From NCBI GenBank assembly GCA_028286785.1, contig JAQBQX010000019.1, positions 1-32,253 of the forward strand: a stretch of 32,253 bases of DNA. Reading direction: 5' to 3'. Both the position numbers and the translations under genes were made by a program. The notes beneath the pieces were generated by a model, which searched no databases, had not been told where the DNA came from, and was given only the letters and a program-made list of their open reading frames with translations. Shown piece after piece: positions 21,115 to 29,412 of the stretch (the first letter of the stretch is position 1; the number at the start of each line of letters is the position of its first letter). Source of the stretch: Candidatus Adlerbacteria bacterium (GTDB taxonomy: Bacteria > Patescibacteriota > Minisyncoccia > Phycocordibacterales > SBAW01).

Positions 21115-22194
21115 CTATTCTTCGTCAGGAGCATCGTCATCTTTGCTTGGCGGGAGTTTAGAAGTGAGAGCGTTTTCAGCAAATTTAGTACGGATTTCCT
21201 TTAAGATCGCGTTTGCGGTCTTTTTGTTGTCACGCAGGTACGTACGGGTTGCGTCGTAACCGCGGCCCATCTTTTCATCGCCGTAGCTGTAAGAAGATCC
21301 GCTTTTTTGTATGACGCCGTACTTTTCGCCCAAGGCGATGATTTCGCCCTCGCTTGAGATACCTTCGTTGTACATGAGGTCAAATTCGGTGGTACGGAAG
21401 GGAGCTGCTACTTTGTTTTTGACTACCTTGACCCGGTGGCGGCCTCCGACAACTTCTTCGCCCTTCTTTATCTGTGCAATGCGGCGGATATCGAGGCGCA
21501 CCGATGTATAAAACTTGAGAGCCTTGCCGCCGGTCGTTGTCTCGGGGTTGCCGAACATCACGCCGATCTGCATACGGATCTGGTTGATGAAGATGACTAT
21601 GGTCTTGGACTTCGAGGTAATGGCTGTGAGTTTGAGCAGCGCTTGTGACATAAGGCGTGCTTGTTTGCCCACCTGGTGGCTGCCCATGTCGCCCTCGATT
21701 TCGTCTTTAGGAGTGAGCGCCGCAACCGAGTCGATGACAATGAGGTCGACCTTGCCCGAGCGCACCAAAGACTCGACGATTTCGAGCGCTTGTTCGCCGG
21801 TATCTGGTTGTGAGACAAGAAGGTTGTTGATATTTACGCCGATTTTTTTGGCATATTCTGGATCAAGTGCGTGTTCGGCATCTATAAATGCGCAGATGCC
21901 GCCTTTTTTTTGCGCTTCGGCAATGGCATGCAAGGTAAGAGTTGTTTTGCCGGATGACTCAGGGCCGAAAACTTCGATGATGCGGCCGCGCGGGTATCCG
22001 CCGATACCAAGAGCCCAATCAAGCCCAATAGAGCCCGAGGGAATAACGTCGACATCCACCTTGGGGGAGTCGCCGAGCTTCATGATGGCCTCGTCGCCAA
22101 ATTTTGTCTTGATTTCGCGGATTGCCGCATCAATAGCGCTGCTGTCTTTTGAAATGCTTTTCGGTTCCTTCGGTGCAGATTTCTTGAGTGCCAT
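21115..22194 (-). CDS. recA: Recombinase A
   Basis: [35 protein letters not shown] and KNKVAAPF. Confidence 0.99.
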
Positions 22195-22198
22195 AGTA

Positions 22199-22564
22199 TT
22201 AAGTATTATTCGTGCAAAAGTTCAAAACAGTGAAGTGCACAGACATGGATGCTTCGCGCCCAAAACGGTCTTTTGCTGCGACCGTAATACTAGTATACCC
22301 CGGGTGTGGAGAGAGTGTAGCACTAAAATGTCCTGCCGCATCCGTGTAGGCAGGGCGACCGTTAATAGTCAAAAAAGCTATATTTTGAGCCATTCCTGAG
22401 ACCACGACCGCAACGCTTGATGTGGCGGATCCACTGCGAGGGAAGTCGAGGCTGATTTCTGGGCCTGACAAGATCCGACGACCTTCAAATAATCCGTAGC
22501 CGCCGACTATAACTATAGCCACCAGTACTAACGCCCATTTGTACCAATTATTGTTCCTCATCAT
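22199..22564 (-). CDS. Small membrane-anchored protein with single Ig-like domain
   Basis: Start overlaps the ftsK stop. N-terminal TM, then VVVSG...LTING...F...[17 protein letters not shown]. Confidence 0.7.
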
Positions 22565-24761
22565 GCGTGCTCTCTGTCTTGGCGCCCAATACTTCGCGTG
22601 GTTTTGCGCCATCAGCTGGGCCAATGACTCCACGCTCTTCAAGTACGTCCATCAACCGCGCTGCGCGAGAATATCCGACTCGAAGCTTGCGCTGGAGGTA
22701 CGAAGTCGACGCTTTGCCTGCCTCTAGTACTGCGTTGCGCGCAGCTTCGTACATGTCGTCGTCAATTTCGTCCTCGTCGCTCGTGATACCGGTGTTGCCA
22801 AGTCCGCCTGCGGTAGGGCCGCCAGTGGGGCCGGTGATATCGATAGGAAGTTCCGAATCGTTATGCTTTGCAATAAAGTCGGTGACCTTTTTTACTTCGT
22901 TTTCGCTGATGTAGGCGCTCTGGAGACGTATAGGTTTGCCCATTTCGCCTGAAAGGTAGAGCATGTCGCCCGCACCCAAGAGCTTTTCTGCGCCTGCTTG
23001 GTCCAAAATGGTGCGCGAGTCGATCTGTGAGGCAACCTGCAGTGCTATGCGGGCCGGAACGTTTGCTTTGATGAGGCCGGTAATGACATTAACTGATGGT
23101 CGCTGTGTCGAAAGAAGCAGGTGAATGCCCACAGCGCGGCTCATCTGGGCCAAACGCACAATTGCCGCTTCAAGTTCACGTGGGAATGTCTGCATGATGT
23201 CGGCCAACTCGTCGATGACAATCACGATGTACGGCATTGCTTCAGGGATCTTGTCGCCCTCGGCTGCGCCTCCTTTGCGGCGTAGTTTTTCCAAAGACGG
23301 GGTAAGGACGTTGGTATGGTACGACTCGATGTCGCGCACGCGTTCAGACTCTAATATATTGTATCGGCGTTCCATTTCTTTGCCCGCCCAGCGCAGCGCC
23401 ATGACTGCTTTTTTAGGGTCGGTGATAACTGGGGTGAGTTGGTGCGGGATAGTGTTATAGAGGGTCAACTCCACACGCTTGGGGTCGATCATCAAAAAGC
23501 GCAGCTGCTGCGGCCCGCAACGGTACAAAAGTGAGGTGATGATAGTGTGGATGCTCACCGACTTGCCCGAGCCCGTTGCCCCTGCGATGAGTCCGTGGGG
23601 CATTTTGGCGAGGTTGGCAAACTGCGACCCGCCTGCAATGTCGCGGCCAAGTGCTACCAACAACGGCTTCGGCGATGCGGCAAACTCAGGTGCCTCAAGG
23701 AGCGTGCCCAAGCCCACTGTAACTTTTGAGTGGTTCGGGACTTCGATGCCTACCAGGGATTTGCCAGGGATAGGTGCCTCAATGCGTACGGGGTGCGCCG
23801 CAAGAGCAAGTTCGAGGTTAGTCTGGAGCGATACAATTTTTTGCAGGCGCACACCTTCGGCGGGTTTGATGGCATAGCGGGTGACCGATGGGCCGATTGA
23901 AATCTCGTCGAGCTCAACCACAATTCCAAAGTTTTGAAGCGTGCGTTTGATGATGTTGGCATTTGCTTTAACGTCACCAACACCCGGGCGGCCTTTGTCA
24001 CGCTCAAGGAGTGACAAAGGTGGCGGGGTGTACGTGCCCAATAGCGACTTCAAAAGGTCTGCAGTATTGACCGCTGCCACAGCGGCAGTAGCAGGTTCGC
24101 GCAGAGGCTGCTGGTGCGGGACGGGCACATCATCTTCCTCGTCGTCTGCATCTGGTGCCTCTTCGTGCTCCTCGTCTTCTGCGTCCACACGGAAGCCGCT
24201 CACGGCAATTCCGTCATCTTCTGGTTCGGGAGTTTTGCCAAATAACCCACGCACTCCACGCACTGTGCTTGCGCTCAAGCCGGTAAAGACATGGACCGGG
24301 ATCGAGCCTTCCAACAACATGAGCAAAGATACCAATGTGAGTCCGCCCATGAGTATGACCGATGCGTATATATCAAAGTAATGAATGGCAGTTTTGCCCA
24401 GCATATCGCCCACTAATCCGCCCTTGCCGCTGACAATAGCCACAAACCCTAATCCAGACAATATAAAGAGAATGCTCGAAAGGCTCTTAAACCAGTCGAA
24501 GCCGGGTTTTTCTTCGCGCAGAGCAGTCCCTGCCAAAACAAAAAAGAGCACTGGCAACAGAAAATATCCGATACCCACCAGATGTACTATGCCTTGATAG
24601 GTGTCTATGCCCGCGACCCCTGCGGTGCCAAATGCGGCCAGGGTCAGGAAGCAACCAAGGATCGAAAACACTACGGCTAAAATTGCACGTTTTGTACCGT
24701 CGGGCATGCCAGATGTTGCCGCGCGGGCGTTTGCTGACTTAGAATTTTTCTTACGCGCCAT
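22548..24761 (-). CDS. ftsK: DNA translocase FtsK/SpoIIIE
   Basis: N-terminal TMs, RIEAPIPGK, AGATGSGKS, IVIDELADIM, STQRPSV and gamma domain STSYLQRKLRVGYSRAARLMD. Confidence 0.98.
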   Translation of the reverse strand: MARKKNSKSANARAATSGMPDGTKRAILAVVFSILGCFLTLAAFGTAGVAGIDTYQGIVHLVGIGYFLLPVLFFVLAGTALREEKPGFDWFKSLSSILFILSGLGFVAIVSGKGGLVGDMLGKTAIHYFDIYASVILMGGLTLVSLLMLLEGSIPVHVFTGLSASTVRGVRGLFGKTPEPEDDGIAVSGFRVDAEDEEHEEAPDADDEEDDVPVPHQQPLREPATAAVAAVNTADLLKSLLGTYTPPPLSLLERDKGRPGVGDVKANANIIKRTLQNFGIVVELDEISIGPSVTRYAIKPAEGVRLQKIVSLQTNLELALAAHPVRIEAPIPGKSLVGIEVPNHSKVTVGLGTLLEAPEFAASPKPLLVALGRDIAGGSQFANLAKMPHGLIAGATGSGKSVSIHTIITSLLYRCGPQQLRFLMIDPKRVELTLYNTIPHQLTPVITDPKKAVMALRWAGKEMERRYNILESERVRDIESYHTNVLTPSLEKLRRKGGAAEGDKIPEAMPYIVIVIDELADIMQTFPRELEAAIVRLAQMSRAVGIHLLLSTQRPSVNVITGLIKANVPARIALQVASQIDSRTILDQAGAEKLLGAGDMLYLSGEMGKPIRLQSAYISENEVKKVTDFIAKHNDSELPIDITGPTGGPTAGGLGNTGITSDEDEIDDDMYEAARNAVLEAGKASTSYLQRKLRVGYSRAARLMDVLEERGVIGPADGAKPREVLGAKTESTHDEEQ

Positions 24762-24840
24762 TGAAACATAATACCACGTGAGCCGAGACTATTTTTAAGC
24801 CTTAATCAACCTGTACAACCTGGAAGCGCTTGTTATACTC

Positions 24841-25531
24841 AAGGACACAGTCTGTCTTAGAAATGTCTTTCAAATCCTTAAAGGACAGCAATAAGACAAG
24901 TGTAAAAGACGCATTGAAAATCAATGTCTGATAACACCTCTAATTTTCATACATTTGCCTTACAGTCAGGCCTTTTTAAAGGACACGACGATTGGTATTT
25001 TTGCTATTTAAAGTCAGAACGGATCGCCCACGTGCTCGCTGTTTTGGCCCAGAGCTCTCCACACCCTGACCTAGACCGTTTGATTGAACTTGCGTCGTCT
25101 CTGCCGGAATCAATCGTGTACTTTGCTGCCTCTGAAGTGGTGCCTTCTGTATTGTTGGCCGAAGTATTTGTGCTCCTTTCCGCGATGCGTCTTAGCGGTA
25201 CTAAGAACCTCATTCGGCAAGAAAACGTTTCAGTACTTATAAGTGAACTCCAACACATTGCTCAATTAATGGGGAACAGCAGCCAAGTGTCGCCGTTTGT
25301 GACTGCCGAGGATTTTGCCGTGCCGTTTGCAACGGCCCCTGACCAAATACCTAAAAGACTTTCTATGCCACCAACCTTAGCCGAAGCGGGAGTTCCTATA
25401 AAGGACATCTATAAAGGACATTTAAAAAGGCAGGCAGGGCCCGTCCCACGCCCCTCTAAAGACCAGGAAGATCGGGCTGCCATAATCCGCGATTTTGTCC
25501 TTTCAAATAAGGGGGTTTCTATAAAAGACAT
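24841..25531. repeat. Cluster of (T)AA(A)(G/A)GACA motifs in the leader and ORF of the HTH gene
   Basis: Exact TAAAGGACA at 24879, 24977, 25399 and 25412. TAAAAGAC at 24903, 25352 and 25522. AAGGACA at 24841, TAAGACA at 24892. Inverted TGTCTT at 24853 and 24864. Confidence 0.8.
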
Positions 25532-25664
25532 TTCTAAGGTAGTGCGAAACTGTAGTGAGAAAACAATCCAGCGCGAATTGGGTGCGCTTATCCAACAGGG
25601 ATTGGTTAAAAAAATAGGGGAGAGGCGGTGGAGCGTATACGTAGGCAGTGCTTCGGCGCAGTAA
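24924..25664 (+). CDS. Helical N-terminal domain plus C-terminal winged HTH (DeoR-like) DNA-binding protein
   Basis: C-terminus RAAIIRDFV...VSIKDISKVVRNCSEKTIQRELGALIQQGLVKKIGERRWSVY. TGn-TATACT promoter at 24831-24839. Confidence 0.8.
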   Translation: MSDNTSNFHTFALQSGLFKGHDDWYFCYLKSERIAHVLAVLAQSSPHPDLDRLIELASSLPESIVYFAASEVVPSVLLAEVFVLLSAMRLSGTKNLIRQENVSVLISELQHIAQLMGNSSQVSPFVTAEDFAVPFATAPDQIPKRLSMPPTLAEAGVPIKDIYKGHLKRQAGPVPRPSKDQEDRAAIIRDFVLSNKGVSIKDISKVVRNCSEKTIQRELGALIQQGLVKKIGERRWSVYVGSASAQ

Positions 25665-25700
25665 AAATCAAGTTGACCCAGACCCCTCCCTGGTGTACCT

Positions 25701-25709
25701 TTATCCACA
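25701..25709 (+). promoter_or_regulatory. Consensus DnaA box
   Basis: TTATCCACA, intergenic, 8 nt upstream of the -35 element. Confidence 0.55.
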
Positions 25710-25717
25710 AGGTATTT

Positions 25718-25746
25718 TTGCACCTTCCACCCCCTGTACCTATAAT
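25718..25746 (+). promoter_or_regulatory. Sigma70 promoter for the structured leader / S-layer-like gene
   Basis: TTGCAC (25718-25723), 17 nt spacer, TATAAT (25741-25746). Confidence 0.8.
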
Positions 25747-25752
25747 GGTACA

Positions 25753-26118
25753 TAGTGGTTGAACCCCATTCGGGCTATAAGCCTGTGTGGGGCAGAATGC
25801 CAGGTTCGTTGACAATTTCATAATCAAACACCTTCATGAAAGACGCAGGTAAGATGTGCGCTCTTTTTGCGTCTATAAATAGTACGTGCTCGCACACCAG
25901 GAATCTTCCTTGTTCCGTATTGACCGCATGACCGATTCCGCCTCACATCTTGCTACCAACGCCTTCACATCTCGCTTGCCTCTTCGCGCTCCATCCTTCC
26001 TTTAATAGGAAAGGTGGTGACGAGGAGAGAGCGAGCGGGAGGGCAGGTAGGTTATCAGTGCTGTTCCATTTATTCGTAGGATTACAAGTAAATTATTATT
26101 CGTTCGTTTAGTTACCTT
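25753..26118 (+). ncRNA. Long structured 5' leader or uncharacterised ncRNA
   Basis: Hand-folded stems at 25761-25807, 25841-25874 and 25953-26050. G-U pairs favour the + strand. No known RNA family recognised. Confidence 0.55.
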
Positions 26119-29100
26119 ATGACTATTACTCAGAGTTCTTCACGTCTCGCCGCTCTCACCATTGGTGTAGCAGCAGTCGTCGCATTTGCGTTCGCAGCGG
26201 TTTCGGCCACTCCAGCGCAGGCTGCAACAATCTGCCCAGGCACAACGTTCTCGACAAACCTTAAACAAGGTGCAACGAGCGCAGGTGTTTTGGCATTGCA
26301 GCAGTTCTTGAACATGAGCCCAGACACGATGATTGCATCGACTGGCGCCGGTTCTCCTGGAAATGAAACAACCTACTTTGGTGCTTTGACCACAGTAGCT
26401 GTTAAAAAGTTCCAGCAAAAGTACGCAGCACAGATTTTGACACCGTTGGGTCTTACAACTCCAACGCCTAACTTCTACGCTGCATCACGTGCACAGGCTA
26501 ATGCAGTCTGCGCAGGCACAGCGGGCACAGGTACTGGTACCGGAACTGGTACAGGCACAGGAACAACAGGTTCTGGCTTGTCGGTTATGGCATCAGCACA
26601 GCCGGCTAATGCACTTGCTCCGGCAAATGCAGCTCGCGTACCATTCACAAACTTTACTCTCACAGCTTCTAATGACGGCGACGTCACTATCAGCGGTGTG
26701 ACAGTACAGCGTGGTGGCGCATCAGCTGACGCTTCCTTCTCAGGTGTTACTCTTCTTGATGCTTCAACTGGTCTCCAGATCGGTATCTCGAAGACGCTTA
26801 ACAGCAACCACCAGGCTACCGTCGGTGACACTATCGTCATCCCTCGCGGCACATCGCGTACCTTCACTGTTGCAGCAAACCGCGCAGCAGCAGGTGCTCA
26901 TGCTGGTGAAATCGCAAGCTTCTCTGTTGTGTCTATCAACACTTCAGCTGCAGTCAACGGTTCGCTCCCAATTGTTGGTGCAAGCCACACAATCAACGAG
27001 TCGCTGTCACTTGGTTCAGTTTCGACTTCAACATCGTCATTTGACCCAGGCGCAGCTCAGAGCCGCAACATCGGTGACACCGCTGTTCGCTTCTCGGGTA
27101 TCCGCTTTACAGCAGCTTCTTCGGAAGACTTGAAGCTCTACTCGATCCGTTGGCGCCAGACCGGTTCTGTTAGCGCATCTGACTTGTCAAACGTCATGAC
27201 AAACGTTGGCGGTACTATGTACCCAGCGACTGTTTCGGCAGACGGCAAATACTTCACTTCAACCTTCCCAGGCGGTATCTTGATCGCTAAGGGCAACTCG
27301 GTTGATGCGTACGTACAGGGCGATATCACCGGCTCTAACGCTGCAGGTCGCACCGCAGAGTTCGACATCGACAAATCGACAGACGTCTACTTTGTTGGTC
27401 AGCTCTATGGCTACGGCATCGCTGCTCCAGGTACCTACACACCTTGGTTTGTAGGCCGCTCGGCATCGATCAGCGCAGGTACAGTAACTACAATCAGCAA
27501 GGCAAACGAAGTTGCTGCGCAGAACATTGCAGTTAACGTTCCTGGCCAGGTTCTCGGCGGGTTTGCTACAAACTTTGCAGGTGAATCTGTATCAGCACAG
27601 CAGATGGTCTTCACTGTCTCAACCACAACCGGTAACACTTTCGGTCTCACCAGCGTTTCTATCGTTGATGAGAGCGGTCGCGTAGTTGCAGGTCCAGTTG
27701 ACCAGTCAGGCACATCACTTACCTTTACTGATACCGTTACGTTCTCAACAGGACGCCACGTGTACACACTCAAGGGTAAGGCTTCGTCTGCAACACCTAC
27801 AGGTACTACCTTCACTGTTGCCACAACTCCTTCGAGCCAGTGGACAAACGTGACAGGTCAGACCTCGGGTAACACCATTTCGCTTTCTGGTACAAGCCAG
27901 GTAACGATGAACACAATGACAGTTAAGGGCGGTTCGGCTGCAGTGACCTTCTCGTCACAGCCAACTTCTCAGAACGTCGTTGCAGGTGTTCAGAACTTTG
28001 TGTTCGGTAACTACCAAATCGACGCATCACAGTCAGGTGAAGACCTCCGCCTCAACGCGGTACCTCTTTACTTCACTGGAAATGCTACAACCCTTTCAGG
28101 TTGTCAGATCTGGGACGGTACAGCCTCTCTCAACAATGGCTCACGTGTAGTCAACACATTGACTGCAGGTGGTGCTACTGCAAACACCTTCAGCCTCGAT
28201 AACACTCTTATCGTTGCTAAGGGTACGGTCAAGACACTCGCAGTTAGCTGTAACATTTCGTCATCAGCTACTTCGTCGTCAACCTACAAGTTCTCAACAG
28301 ACACAGCTACGGGTGATTACGCCTTTACTGGCGCAACCTCGGGTAACACCATCACTCCTACCGCTTCGGCTTCGAACGCAGGTACGATGACTGTTACTGC
28401 AGGCTCGCTCACCATCTCAGTTGACTCATCGTCTCCTTCATACAAGGCGGCATCAGGTGGTTCAACCGGCGTGACTGTTGCTGCTATCAAGGTCCGTGCA
28501 ACAAACGAGGCAACAAACCTCACTAAGCTCGGCTTGGTACTCACTTCAGGCAGCGCAGGTGACCTCTCACAGGTATACATCTACAACGGTGCAACCTTGG
28601 TAGGTACAGCTCAGTTCACTGGTGGTAACACTGTCGCAACATCTACATTCAACACTGCGGTAGCGTTGACTAAGGATACCGACACAGTTCTTACCGTTAA
28701 GGCTGACTTCGCTGACATTGGTTCTAGCCAGTCAGGTACAGAAGGTAACCTCGTCAAGATTGATCCGCTCAATGCAGAAGGCACTGGCGCATCATCTGGT
28801 AACACAGTTACTGCAAGCGCAACAGCTGGTGTAGCAGGCGTACGCGTCTTCAACACCTTCCCAACGCTCGCACTTGATACGCTTGGCTCTACCGGCGTAG
28901 CCGATGGCAAGCTTATGCGCTTCAAGGTTACTGCTGACTCGTTGGGTCAGGTAGGTATCGGCAAGTTCACGTTCACACTCGCAACTACAACGTTGTCAGT
29001 GACGAACATCGGCTTGTACGCATACACTGATTCTTCTTACTCTTCAACAATCTCAAGCCAGGGCACTTCTGGTCAGATTGGTGCAACAGTATCGTCAGCA

Positions 29101-29412
29101 AGCACAACAGCGTTCTGGATCCAGCCAAGCACGTCTCCTGTCCAGGTCCCAGCAGGCTCAACTGTATACTTCGAACTTCGCGGTTCAGTTACAAACAATG
29201 CCACTGGCGCTTCGGTCGTGACGACTCTCTTGGGTGATGCAACCGCTAGCCCATCGACGGGTACATCGCCATTCGCTTCGGTCTCTGGTAACTTTATCTG
29301 GAGCGCAAACGCAACAGGTACAGCTGCTACATCAACCGGCAACGACTGGTCAAATGGTTACGGCCTCCCAGGCTACCCAGCCTCAGGTCTTATCCAGACT
29401 CGTTCGAACTAA
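26119..29412 (+). CDS. Large secreted S-layer-like protein: signal peptide, peptidoglycan-binding-like domain, Gly-Thr linker, ~6 beta-sandwich repeats
   Basis: Signal ending AQA and PGBD-like LKQGATSAGVLALQQFLN...YFGALTTVAVKKFQ. T/S/G/A-rich with strong codon bias (GGT, GCA, ACT/ACA, TTC, AAC). Confidence 0.8.
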   Translation: MTITQSSSRLAALTIGVAAVVAFAFAAVSATPAQAATICPGTTFSTNLKQGATSAGVLALQQFLNMSPDTMIASTGAGSPGNETTYFGALTTVAVKKFQQKYAAQILTPLGLTTPTPNFYAASRAQANAVCAGTAGTGTGTGTGTGTGTTGSGLSVMASAQPANALAPANAARVPFTNFTLTASNDGDVTISGVTVQRGGASADASFSGVTLLDASTGLQIGISKTLNSNHQATVGDTIVIPRGTSRTFTVAANRAAAGAHAGEIASFSVVSINTSAAVNGSLPIVGASHTINESLSLGSVSTSTSSFDPGAAQSRNIGDTAVRFSGIRFTAASSEDLKLYSIRWRQTGSVSASDLSNVMTNVGGTMYPATVSADGKYFTSTFPGGILIAKGNSVDAYVQGDITGSNAAGRTAEFDIDKSTDVYFVGQLYGYGIAAPGTYTPWFVGRSASISAGTVTTISKANEVAAQNIAVNVPGQVLGGFATNFAGESVSAQQMVFTVSTTTGNTFGLTSVSIVDESGRVVAGPVDQSGTSLTFTDTVTFSTGRHVYTLKGKASSATPTGTTFTVATTPSSQWTNVTGQTSGNTISLSGTSQVTMNTMTVKGGSAAVTFSSQPTSQNVVAGVQNFVFGNYQIDASQSGEDLRLNAVPLYFTGNATTLSGCQIWDGTASLNNGSRVVNTLTAGGATANTFSLDNTLIVAKGTVKTLAVSCNISSSATSSSTYKFSTDTATGDYAFTGATSGNTITPTASASNAGTMTVTAGSLTISVDSSSPSYKAASGGSTGVTVAAIKVRATNEATNLTKLGLVLTSGSAGDLSQVYIYNGATLVGTAQFTGGNTVATSTFNTAVALTKDTDTVLTVKADFADIGSSQSGTEGNLVKIDPLNAEGTGASSGNTVTASATAGVAGVRVFNTFPTLALDTLGSTGVADGKLMRFKVTADSLGQVGIGKFTFTLATTTLSVTNIGLYAYTDSSYSSTISSQGTSGQIGATVSSASTTAFWIQPSTSPVQVPAGSTVYFELRGSVTNNATGASVVTTLLGDATASPSTGTSPFASVSGNFIWSANATGTAATSTGNDWSNGYGLPGYPASGLIQTRSN
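26515..26565 (+). repeat. Gly-Thr dipeptide linker repeat
   Basis: GTAGTGTGTGTGTGTGT encoded by varied GGN-ACN codons. Confidence 0.8.

Follow-up and report, generated by a model that had tools for sequence, protein, structure and literature searches.

The 32,253-nucleotide (nt) stretch analysed here (the window), contig JAQBQX010000019.1 of the Candidatus Adlerbacteria assembly GCA_028286785.1, carries a gene for a winged helix-turn-helix (wHTH) protein whose leader and coding sequence hold many copies of one short DNA word, which raises the question of what such an array does within and in front of a gene. An earlier note, made from the sequence letters alone, had proposed a protein with its cognate sites that serves either autoregulation or chromosome replication and segregation. 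The analysis presented here argues that the gene probably encodes a Parcubacteria-specific, negatively autoregulated wHTH transcription factor, with arrays of sites in the leader and in the DNA coding for its own interdomain linker, and with a tiny conserved regulon.

One DNA word in the leader and in the linker-coding sequence

Counting as a copy every nine-mer with at most two mismatches to TAAARGACA and an intact GAC core, 13 copies are found between 24839 and 25530, of which 7 lie in the 5' leader and start codon (4 on the plus and 3 on the minus strand) and 6 in the open reading frame (ORF) of 246 amino acids (Table 1). The earlier note had counted at least 11, and all its motif positions hold on re-scanning: AARGACA or ARGACA stands in the leader at 24841(+), 24853(-), 24864(-), 24879/24881(+), 24892(+) and 24903(+, AAAAGACG), and in the ORF at 24977, 25399, 25412, 25496(-) and 25522, with weaker extra copies at 24925(-) and 25352(+). 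The first motif copy begins at 24839, the very position where the predicted promoter of the wHTH gene ends, and directly 3' of the -10 box the leader holds an inverted pair, AAGGACA-N5-TGTCTTA. Both the perfect 13-bp tandem reported in the ORF (CTATAAAGGACAT twice, 25396-25421) and the near-copy of its unit (CTATAAAAGACAT, 25519-25531) were located, and the tandem is, as had been held, not a protein-level repeat, its two copies being read K-D-I and K-G-H in different frames. The isolated copy at 24977, which occurs only in loci where H or Q comes next in the LFKG peptide, may be coincidental with this conserved peptide. The copy at 25522 looks partly coincidental with the conserved SIKDI peptide, the site being less kept as DNA, with several orthologs reading SIKEI or using GAT.

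Table 1. Position of the motif copies, promoter-like elements and genes in the window
Feature	Position	Strand	Description and basis
Leader array, 7 copies	24839..24933	both	24839+, 24853-, 24864-, 24879+, 24890+, 24903+, 24925-; motif scan
Promoter-like TGTACA-16-TATACT, TG extension	24812..24839	+	predicted promoter of the wHTH gene; consensus scan
Isolated TAAAGGACA	24977..24985	+	read F-K-G-H in the conserved LFKG[RHQ] peptide
Linker-coding array	25352..25420	+	TAAAAGACT at 25352, then 13-bp tandem with TAAAGGACA at 25399 and 25412
Two further ORF copies	25496..25530	both	25496(-), 25522(+); 25522 encodes S-I-K-D-I, start of the wHTH
wHTH ORF, 246 amino acids	24924..25664	+	bundle residues 22-119, disordered linker 121-178, winged HTH 179-241
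ftsK	22548..24761	-	FtsK alpha, FtsK_SpoIIIE ATPase and gamma domains (Pfam)
recA	21115-22194	-	Pfam
DnaA-type box TTATCCACA	25701-25709	+	37 nt past the wHTH stop codon
Promoter-like TTTGCA-18-TATAAT	25717..25746	+	directly 3' of the DnaA-type box, faces the 1,097-amino-acid gene; kept in orthologs; consensus scan

The window is contig C18 of an assembly of 581,337 nt in 39 contigs with 51% GC; in the following, G000 is the window's own genome, the other G-numbers are genomes of a sample of relatives and L-numbers are loci extracted from them. Counted on both strands of the whole of G000, AAGGACA occurs 70 times, approximately the uniform expectation, versus 6 times within 24800-25700 of the window. 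The corresponding counts in the genome versus the same interval are 25 and 5 for AAAGGACA, 10 and 4 for TAAAGGACA, with 5 more in two clusters on contig C29, and 4 and 3 for CTATAAARGACAT. The condition set before, enrichment over the genome background, has to be reformulated: the motif is not enriched in the genome as a whole and is clustered at very few loci, as is expected for a local regulator. In an unbiased test, in which the best-enriched 7-mer was determined for each of 1,234 overlapping 900-nt segments of the genome, the wHTH region ranks fourth (AAGGACA, Poisson P ~1e-9), so the array is not a product of motif picking. Stronger 7-mer clustering is seen in G000 at C6:901-2250 and C11:3601-4950 (GCGGTGA eight times, ATCGTCC six times, GGTGGAC six times); these clusters may be coding repeats. 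A genome-wide polarity signal similar to the FtsK orienting polar sequences (KOPS) is ruled out by the chance frequency of AAGGACA.

Conservation of the arrays was assessed in the sample of relatives. Of its 41 genomes, among which the window's own is counted, 38 encode a homolog of the wHTH protein; within the genus the proportion is 23 of 24, and for the other families of the order 14 of 16. The genus analysis comprises 23 loci, the window and 22 relatives, a match of 29 residues in G005 having been given no locus. All 23 loci carry both arrays, leader and linker-coding, and the earlier reading, for which absence of the motif from homologous loci would have been fatal, thus withstands this comparison. 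AARGACA reaches a density of 19.6/kb in the leaders (51 copies in 2,599 nt) and 5.7/kb in the wHTH ORFs (94 in 16,500 nt), versus 0.23/kb in the flanks (15 in 64,770 nt). Across 170 sites, the positions -3 to -1, which were not used as seed, prefer T (82%), A (65%) and A (85%), which extends the motif to the 9-mer TAAARGACA.

The arrangement of the leader copies relative to the promoter is conserved as well. At 17 of the 23 genus loci a motif copy stands no more than 4 nt past a -10-like hexamer, at a distance of 76-90 nt upstream of the start codon; a palindrome RGACR-N3-7-YGTCY comes after the -10-like box at 15, and at 14 the last leader copy, which contains AGGA, ends at most 12 nt from the start codon. 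In the window and at most genus loci the sites are thus placed at the predicted core promoter of their own gene, as in a negatively autoregulated repressor. Of 72 direct pairs of neighbouring copies, 38 have a spacing of 9-13 bp, and of 10 inverted pairs 5 have one of 11 bp, which corresponds to about one turn of the DNA helix.

The intragenic array falls in the DNA for the disordered linker (residues 121-178), and nucleotides 447-546 of the ORF contain at least one AARGACA at each of the 23 genus loci. Among the 60 linker copies, 24 are read as K-D-x, 34 as K-G/R-H/Q and 2 in the third frame, in which TAAAGGACA opens with a stop codon (TAA); both usable frames are used, and more than one frame is in use at 16 of the 23 loci. 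Linker Asp after Lys is encoded by GAC in 27 of 27 cases, versus 84 of 193 Asp codons elsewhere in the same genes (Fisher P 2.5e-9), and Gly in K-G-[HQ] by GGA in 24 of 25 cases, versus 55 of 253 Gly codons elsewhere (Fisher P 8.5e-14), P values which are overstated as the genomes are kin. The use of two frames combined with a near-absolute choice among synonymous codons shows that the nucleotides themselves are under selection. Many orthologs repeat the 13-bp offset from the first to the second linker copy (positions read by eye), and the tandem in the window is therefore an old arrangement and not a recent duplication.

The protein and the depth of its conservation

The AlphaFold2 (AF2) model of the 246-amino-acid protein (mean predicted local distance difference test score, pLDDT, 83.5) consists of an N-terminal four-helix bundle (helices 22-44, 48-68, 74-93 and 99-119), a disordered stretch with pLDDT below 60 (residues 121-178) and a winged HTH (179-241) with helices 179-194, 200-206 and 212-224, strands 228-231 and 238-241 and pLDDT above 90. 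The wHTH assignment of the earlier note is borne out by this model and by fold matches, and the bundle, about which it had only asked, is seen both in the model and in the fold comparison. The C-terminal domain has the three-helix bundle and beta-hairpin wing of the fold, and its matches, BlaI, HlyU, MarR and IclR/TtgV, are repressors. Foldseek gave structural relatives for the wHTH only (BlaI, HlyU, MarR, IclR; E 0.014-0.1 over 60-79 columns), VIA scored this domain at Z 10-11.3 with a root-mean-square deviation of 1.4-2 over 58-67 residues, and a PDB profile search returned one match, BlaI (E 0.034). A few homologs carry precomputed PF08220 or PF13730.

For the bundle, VIA gave Z 13.4 (8ub7_B), 13.3 (2rld_A) and 12.8 (4dwl_A), hits similar to Avd and the 'S23 ribosomal protein family', with a designed ROP bundle tying at 13.4; Z values up to ~13 are common among four-helix bundles, so that this is the generic range. 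The N-terminal domain has no Pfam match, and a search of the Atlas with it returned only hypothetical clusters of the candidate phyla radiation (CPR), with scores of at most 0.85. It is found in 72 representative clusters among 1.84 billion proteins, nearly all of ~225-255 amino acids, which indicates a fixed architecture and a narrow family. Homologs are named 'hypothetical protein' or 'predicted transcriptional regulator' in their source annotations, which assign them to Candidatus Paceibacterota, Adlerbacteria and Parcubacteria. The gene is single-copy in G000, where tblastn found no paralogs of the protein (next match E 0.09). A LexA-type SOS repressor, considered in view of the nearby recA, is rejected, as Pfam and NCBIfam find no S24 peptidase domain and the model shows a helical bundle in its place. 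The earlier note had not recognised the module as described, and a literature search on motif and protein family likewise gave nothing relevant, as judged from abstracts.

At the level of the order, seven homologs share only 23-26% overall identity, with the recognition helix (SEKTIQREL) and the wing (G-x-RRWS-x-Y) hardly varying, and all seven have the same motif in leader, linker or both. At the class level, a homolog is present in 44 of 81 genomes, the window's own included, and across 29 loci AARGACA has a density of 1.62/kb in gene plus leader versus 0.39/kb in the flanks. GGACA reaches 7.1/kb in the class-level linkers versus 1.7/kb in the flanks, driven by 7 of 28 loci with at least 3 sense copies; L086, with two stops in frame, was left out of this count. 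Words in the distant homologs include ATTGGACAA, AATGGACA and ACGGACA. A scan of G118 with WWNGGACAW was too noisy, with none on the gene's strand among the matches listed. Wing residue and the base before GGACA covary, in that GGACA is preceded most often by AA at 28 of 32 RWS-wing loci and by a pyrimidine at 10 of the 14 RWR[RK]-wing loci that have sites; this covariation is suggestive, and probably reflects one evolutionary split.

A second locus and the gene neighbourhood

The strongest clusters found with the position weight matrix, in G000 and in the 754-kb contig 1 of G018, lie at the wHTH gene and at one other locus only. This second locus consists of tRNA-Pro(tgg), UPF0102, tRNA-Gly(gcc), tRNA-Arg(tcg) and the genes for the CCA-adding enzyme (cca) and an Xth-like nuclease (xth). 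Arrays adjoin xth in ten of ten genomes (G000, G004, G009, G013, G018, G019, G021, G027, G029 and G037), and the motif also stands upstream of tRNA-Pro. In alignment A1 of five genus genomes the xth-proximal site reads TTATCCACA-N4-TGTCCTTTACAc-TGTCTTTTATAg-N3-TATAGT, so that two motif copies overlap the -35 and spacer of a conserved promoter-like element in the cca-xth interval, and a DnaA-type box closely precedes this element. Second-locus copies are intergenic and occur in both orientations, which points to recognition as DNA.

Between the 3' ends of cca and xth lies a candidate structured RNA of ~260 nt (L001, G000 C29, 8352-8618), with equivalents in L033, L034 and L035 and with the promoter-like element covered by the motif upstream. 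It has a minimum free energy z score of -4.9 and ends in a GC-rich terminator hairpin with a T-run; the consensus fold of four sequences is weak (-9.3 kcal/mol), with double changes in 15 of 27 pairs. Rfam gave no more than chance-level matches on the cca-xth spacer (E up to 10) and only tRNAs in six second-locus regions, and the 6S model had no match in five genomes.

Further motif clusters were observed elsewhere. In G018, C1:707186-707203 (L082 2187-2204), two perfect minus-strand sites, TAAAAGACA and TAAAGGACA, abut at the 5' end of a 266-amino-acid ORF, a possible further target. Clusters are also present in other families of the order, at G027 C1:1006-1242 and C7:1216-1308 and at G037 C26:13812-13933, the last of these beside a tRNA-Phe region that has two DnaA-type boxes; such families may have a larger regulon.

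With respect to the neighbourhood of the wHTH gene, synteny is strong, with ftsK as the divergent upstream neighbour at 29 of 30 homologous loci and a large gene kept downstream at 27 of 30. Pfam identifies both FtsK and RecA, in agreement with the divergent ftsK-recA arrangement described before. In front of ftsK (24762-24800, minus strand, and the leaders at the orthologous loci), a conserved extended -10 similar to TGnTATKAT was read by eye ~10 nt before the ATG, an element that the scan did not list; its position suggests a nearly leaderless ftsK mRNA. The DnaA box that had been noticed after the wHTH gene is present, and TT[AG]TCCACA occupies the corresponding position at 22 of 23 genus loci (read by eye). 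As similar single boxes abut the second-locus arrays, three sites in all are adjoined by single conserved DnaA boxes, one after the wHTH gene and two in the tRNA/cca/xth locus.

The gene downstream of the wHTH gene in the window, an ORF of 1,097 amino acids (26119-29412), is rich in Thr, Ser, Ala and Gly, has a signal-like N-terminus and matches no Pfam family at 1e-5. In 25701-26118, the box and the promoter-like element are followed by a leader of ~370 nt before this ORF, and this leader holds a conserved GTTCGTTGACAA segment and a long hairpin (25969-26041) with matches to miRNA models at chance level only. An Rfam scan of the window gave no match at gathering score, and around the wHTH gene, with E up to 10, only chance-level matches.

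Readings of the arrays and known systems

In the explanation considered probable here, the factor would combine the four-helix bundle, presumably an oligomerisation module, with a flexible linker of ~55 residues and a C-terminal DeoR/BlaI-like winged HTH, and the 9-mer TAAARGACA is its proposed recognition site. The protein would bind the inverted pair right after its own -10 box and the direct repeats up to the start codon, and thereby shut off its own transcription. The linker array, ~480-500 bp downstream, may act as an auxiliary operator, either in cooperation with the leader array, through a loop or bridge, or by forming a roadblock. In addition, the factor may control the cca-xth promoter, tRNA-Pro and possibly the divergent ftsK, a regulon of a few growth-related genes, proposed to be very small because the motif overlaps the cca-xth promoter and stands upstream of tRNA-Pro. 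The autoregulated module is the best-supported part of the earlier reading. The arrays, their conservation as DNA, their place next to promoter-like hexamers and the domain architecture are observed here; from these we infer binding of the arrays by this protein, repression as its effect, oligomerisation through the bundle and cooperation of the two arrays. A further-reaching and rather unlikely variant is a growth or cell-cycle switch, in which oligomers held by the bundle would bridge the arrays and loop ~500 bp of their own gene and, together with the DnaA boxes, would couple DnaA status to ftsK, the tRNA-maturation locus and the ~260-nt RNA.

Several findings weigh against the autoregulated factor. 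The wHTH domain stays under every curated cut-off of Pfam and NCBIfam (HTH_36 19 bits versus 25, TIGR01884 19.5 versus 60.2). Beyond the order, leader arrays are not evident, and linker GGACA arrays occur in only 7 of 28 class-level loci. Gene and arrays are both absent in one genome only (G026, 92% complete), and G029, which is 99% complete and was available but for 386 nt, carries the second-locus arrays without a wHTH homolog detectable by protein and profile search, two further candidate regions of this genome having none either; its tRNA/cca/xth locus (C2:102000-110000, L081) shows motif arrays together with DnaA-type boxes. The case of G029 is what would be expected if the motif were the site of another DNA-binding protein, with the wHTH gene a target and not the binder. 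This reading is unlikely on the whole, as the densest arrays in every genome examined sit on the wHTH gene, gene and arrays travel together across families at 23-26% identity, wing residue and preceding base change together, and autoregulation is the commonest arrangement among bacterial regulators. The remaining point against the factor is the sense-strand bias of the copies (80 versus 14 in the ORFs, 45 versus 6 in the leaders), with which an RNA-level element would fit as well. The repeats might act in the mRNA, the Shine-Dalgarno-like AGGA and the complementary UGUCCUU affecting initiation, pausing in the linker or stability, or might as RNA be bound by the wHTH protein, and besides the bias the AGGA close to the start codon and the potential of inverted copies to pair speak for it. 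Such a role is nevertheless improbable: the second-locus copies are found in either orientation in intergenic DNA, over -35 and spacer and so upstream of the transcript, the AAAGACA variant without GGA is frequent, the spacing follows the helical repeat of DNA, and the fold is that of a DNA-binding wHTH.

The arrays could also be iterons or a centromere; the protein would then be a lambda-O-like initiator whose gene contains the origin, or the arrays would serve segregation together with the neighbouring FtsK. Direct repeats in tandem do occur at the gene, as with iterons, and lie in linker-coding DNA as in lambda O; a DnaA-type box follows 37 nt past the stop codon, ftsK adjoins, and the GC skew of the window changes sign near 24-25 kb. 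This local change coincides with the strand switch and the Thr/Ser/Ala-rich gene. In G018 contig 1, the relative in which the question was examined, the cumulative GC skew reaches minima near 174 and 282 kb and peaks near 645 kb, with dnaA at 280.4 kb and the second locus at 246-248.5 kb; the wHTH gene, at 342.8 kb, stands on the rising limb, 62 kb from dnaA, and mapping against skew, proposed before as a check, places the wHTH locus off the extrema. TTRTCCACA occurs 11 times in this contig versus ~11.5 expected and is never clustered, so that neither the skew minimum nor the DnaA-box cluster of an origin is found at the wHTH locus of this relative. The protein shows no Rep or O family in Pfam and NCBIfam at E up to 1 and no ParB_N domain in Pfam, a canonical ParB is encoded elsewhere in five of five genomes tested, and the synteny of the gene is chromosomal and conserved. 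Because of skew, distance to dnaA, box frequency and the presence of ParB, replication or segregation is rejected as the main function and retains a very low probability; of the two functions proposed earlier, autoregulation is the better supported, with arrays conserved after a -10-like box. Lowest of all, close to negligible, is the probability that the copies in the ORF result from a repeated peptide or from chance. The consensus peptide xIKDxxKGHxK does recur, and in distant homologs most copies are read G-Q or G-H, in one frame; on the opposite side, one DNA word is read in two frames as two different peptides with an almost absolute synonymous choice, which refutes this origin for the genus, the word also populates the leader and the intergenic sites, which are non-coding, and the wHTH region ranks fourth of 1,234.

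To our knowledge, almost nothing is known of transcription control in the ultra-small Parcubacteria and other CPR bacteria, which are uncultured and possess very few regulators. The negatively autoregulated factor would provide a ready pairing of regulator, site and regulon, composed of an uncharacterised protein family, a deeply conserved 9-bp site and three conserved target regions. It also offers a clean natural case of regulatory DNA inside coding sequence with selection visible at synonymous sites, the disordered linker appearing to serve as 'free' sequence space for operators. Should the links to DnaA boxes, ftsK and tRNA genes be functional, they might open an entry to cell-cycle control in reduced genomes; and if the switch were real, the operator code in the linker, kept in two frames, would represent overlapping protein and regulatory coding across an order.

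Among known systems, Escherichia coli PurR regulates its own gene through operators that lie 3' of the transcription start, one falling within the coding sequence of purR. The wHTH gene would similarly be a repressor gene with its own operators in leader and ORF, where a roadblock or cooperative action is presumed, but it differs from PurR, a LacI-family protein with two 16-bp palindromes, in having arrays of 2-7 short 9-mers of variable number, spacing and orientation, located in disordered-linker DNA and kept in two frames across a bacterial order. In lambda O, direct repeats for a winged-helix protein lie inside the linker-coding part of its own gene (ori-lambda), and iteron Rep proteins such as RepA of pPS10 repress their own promoter through an inverted repeat located there and have direct repeats elsewhere. 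The wHTH gene shares the direct repeats in linker-coding DNA with the former and the inverted repeat at the promoter with the latter; unlike in these systems, the gene is chromosomal, single-copy, syntenic, off the GC-skew switch and without a DnaA-box cluster, and no sequence or fold relation of its protein to lambda O or Rep_3 was found. The C-terminal domain shares its DNA-binding fold with repressors of the BlaI/MecI, ArsR/HlyU, MarR and IclR types, in which, however, the wHTH is N-terminal, while here it is C-terminal and joined to a bundle without sequence relatives outside the family. A DNA-binding protein with a cognate site in its own coding sequence, as is proposed for the wHTH protein, is also Spo0J (ParB) of Bacillus subtilis, whose gene contains a parS site; the wHTH protein is distinguished by the lack of ParB_N, a short repeated 9-mer instead of a 16-bp palindrome and a canonical ParB encoded elsewhere. 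Cumulatively, the closest analogues are the intragenic operator of PurR, the lambda O iterons and the autorepression of iteron Rep proteins, and the wHTH protein is a member of none of them.

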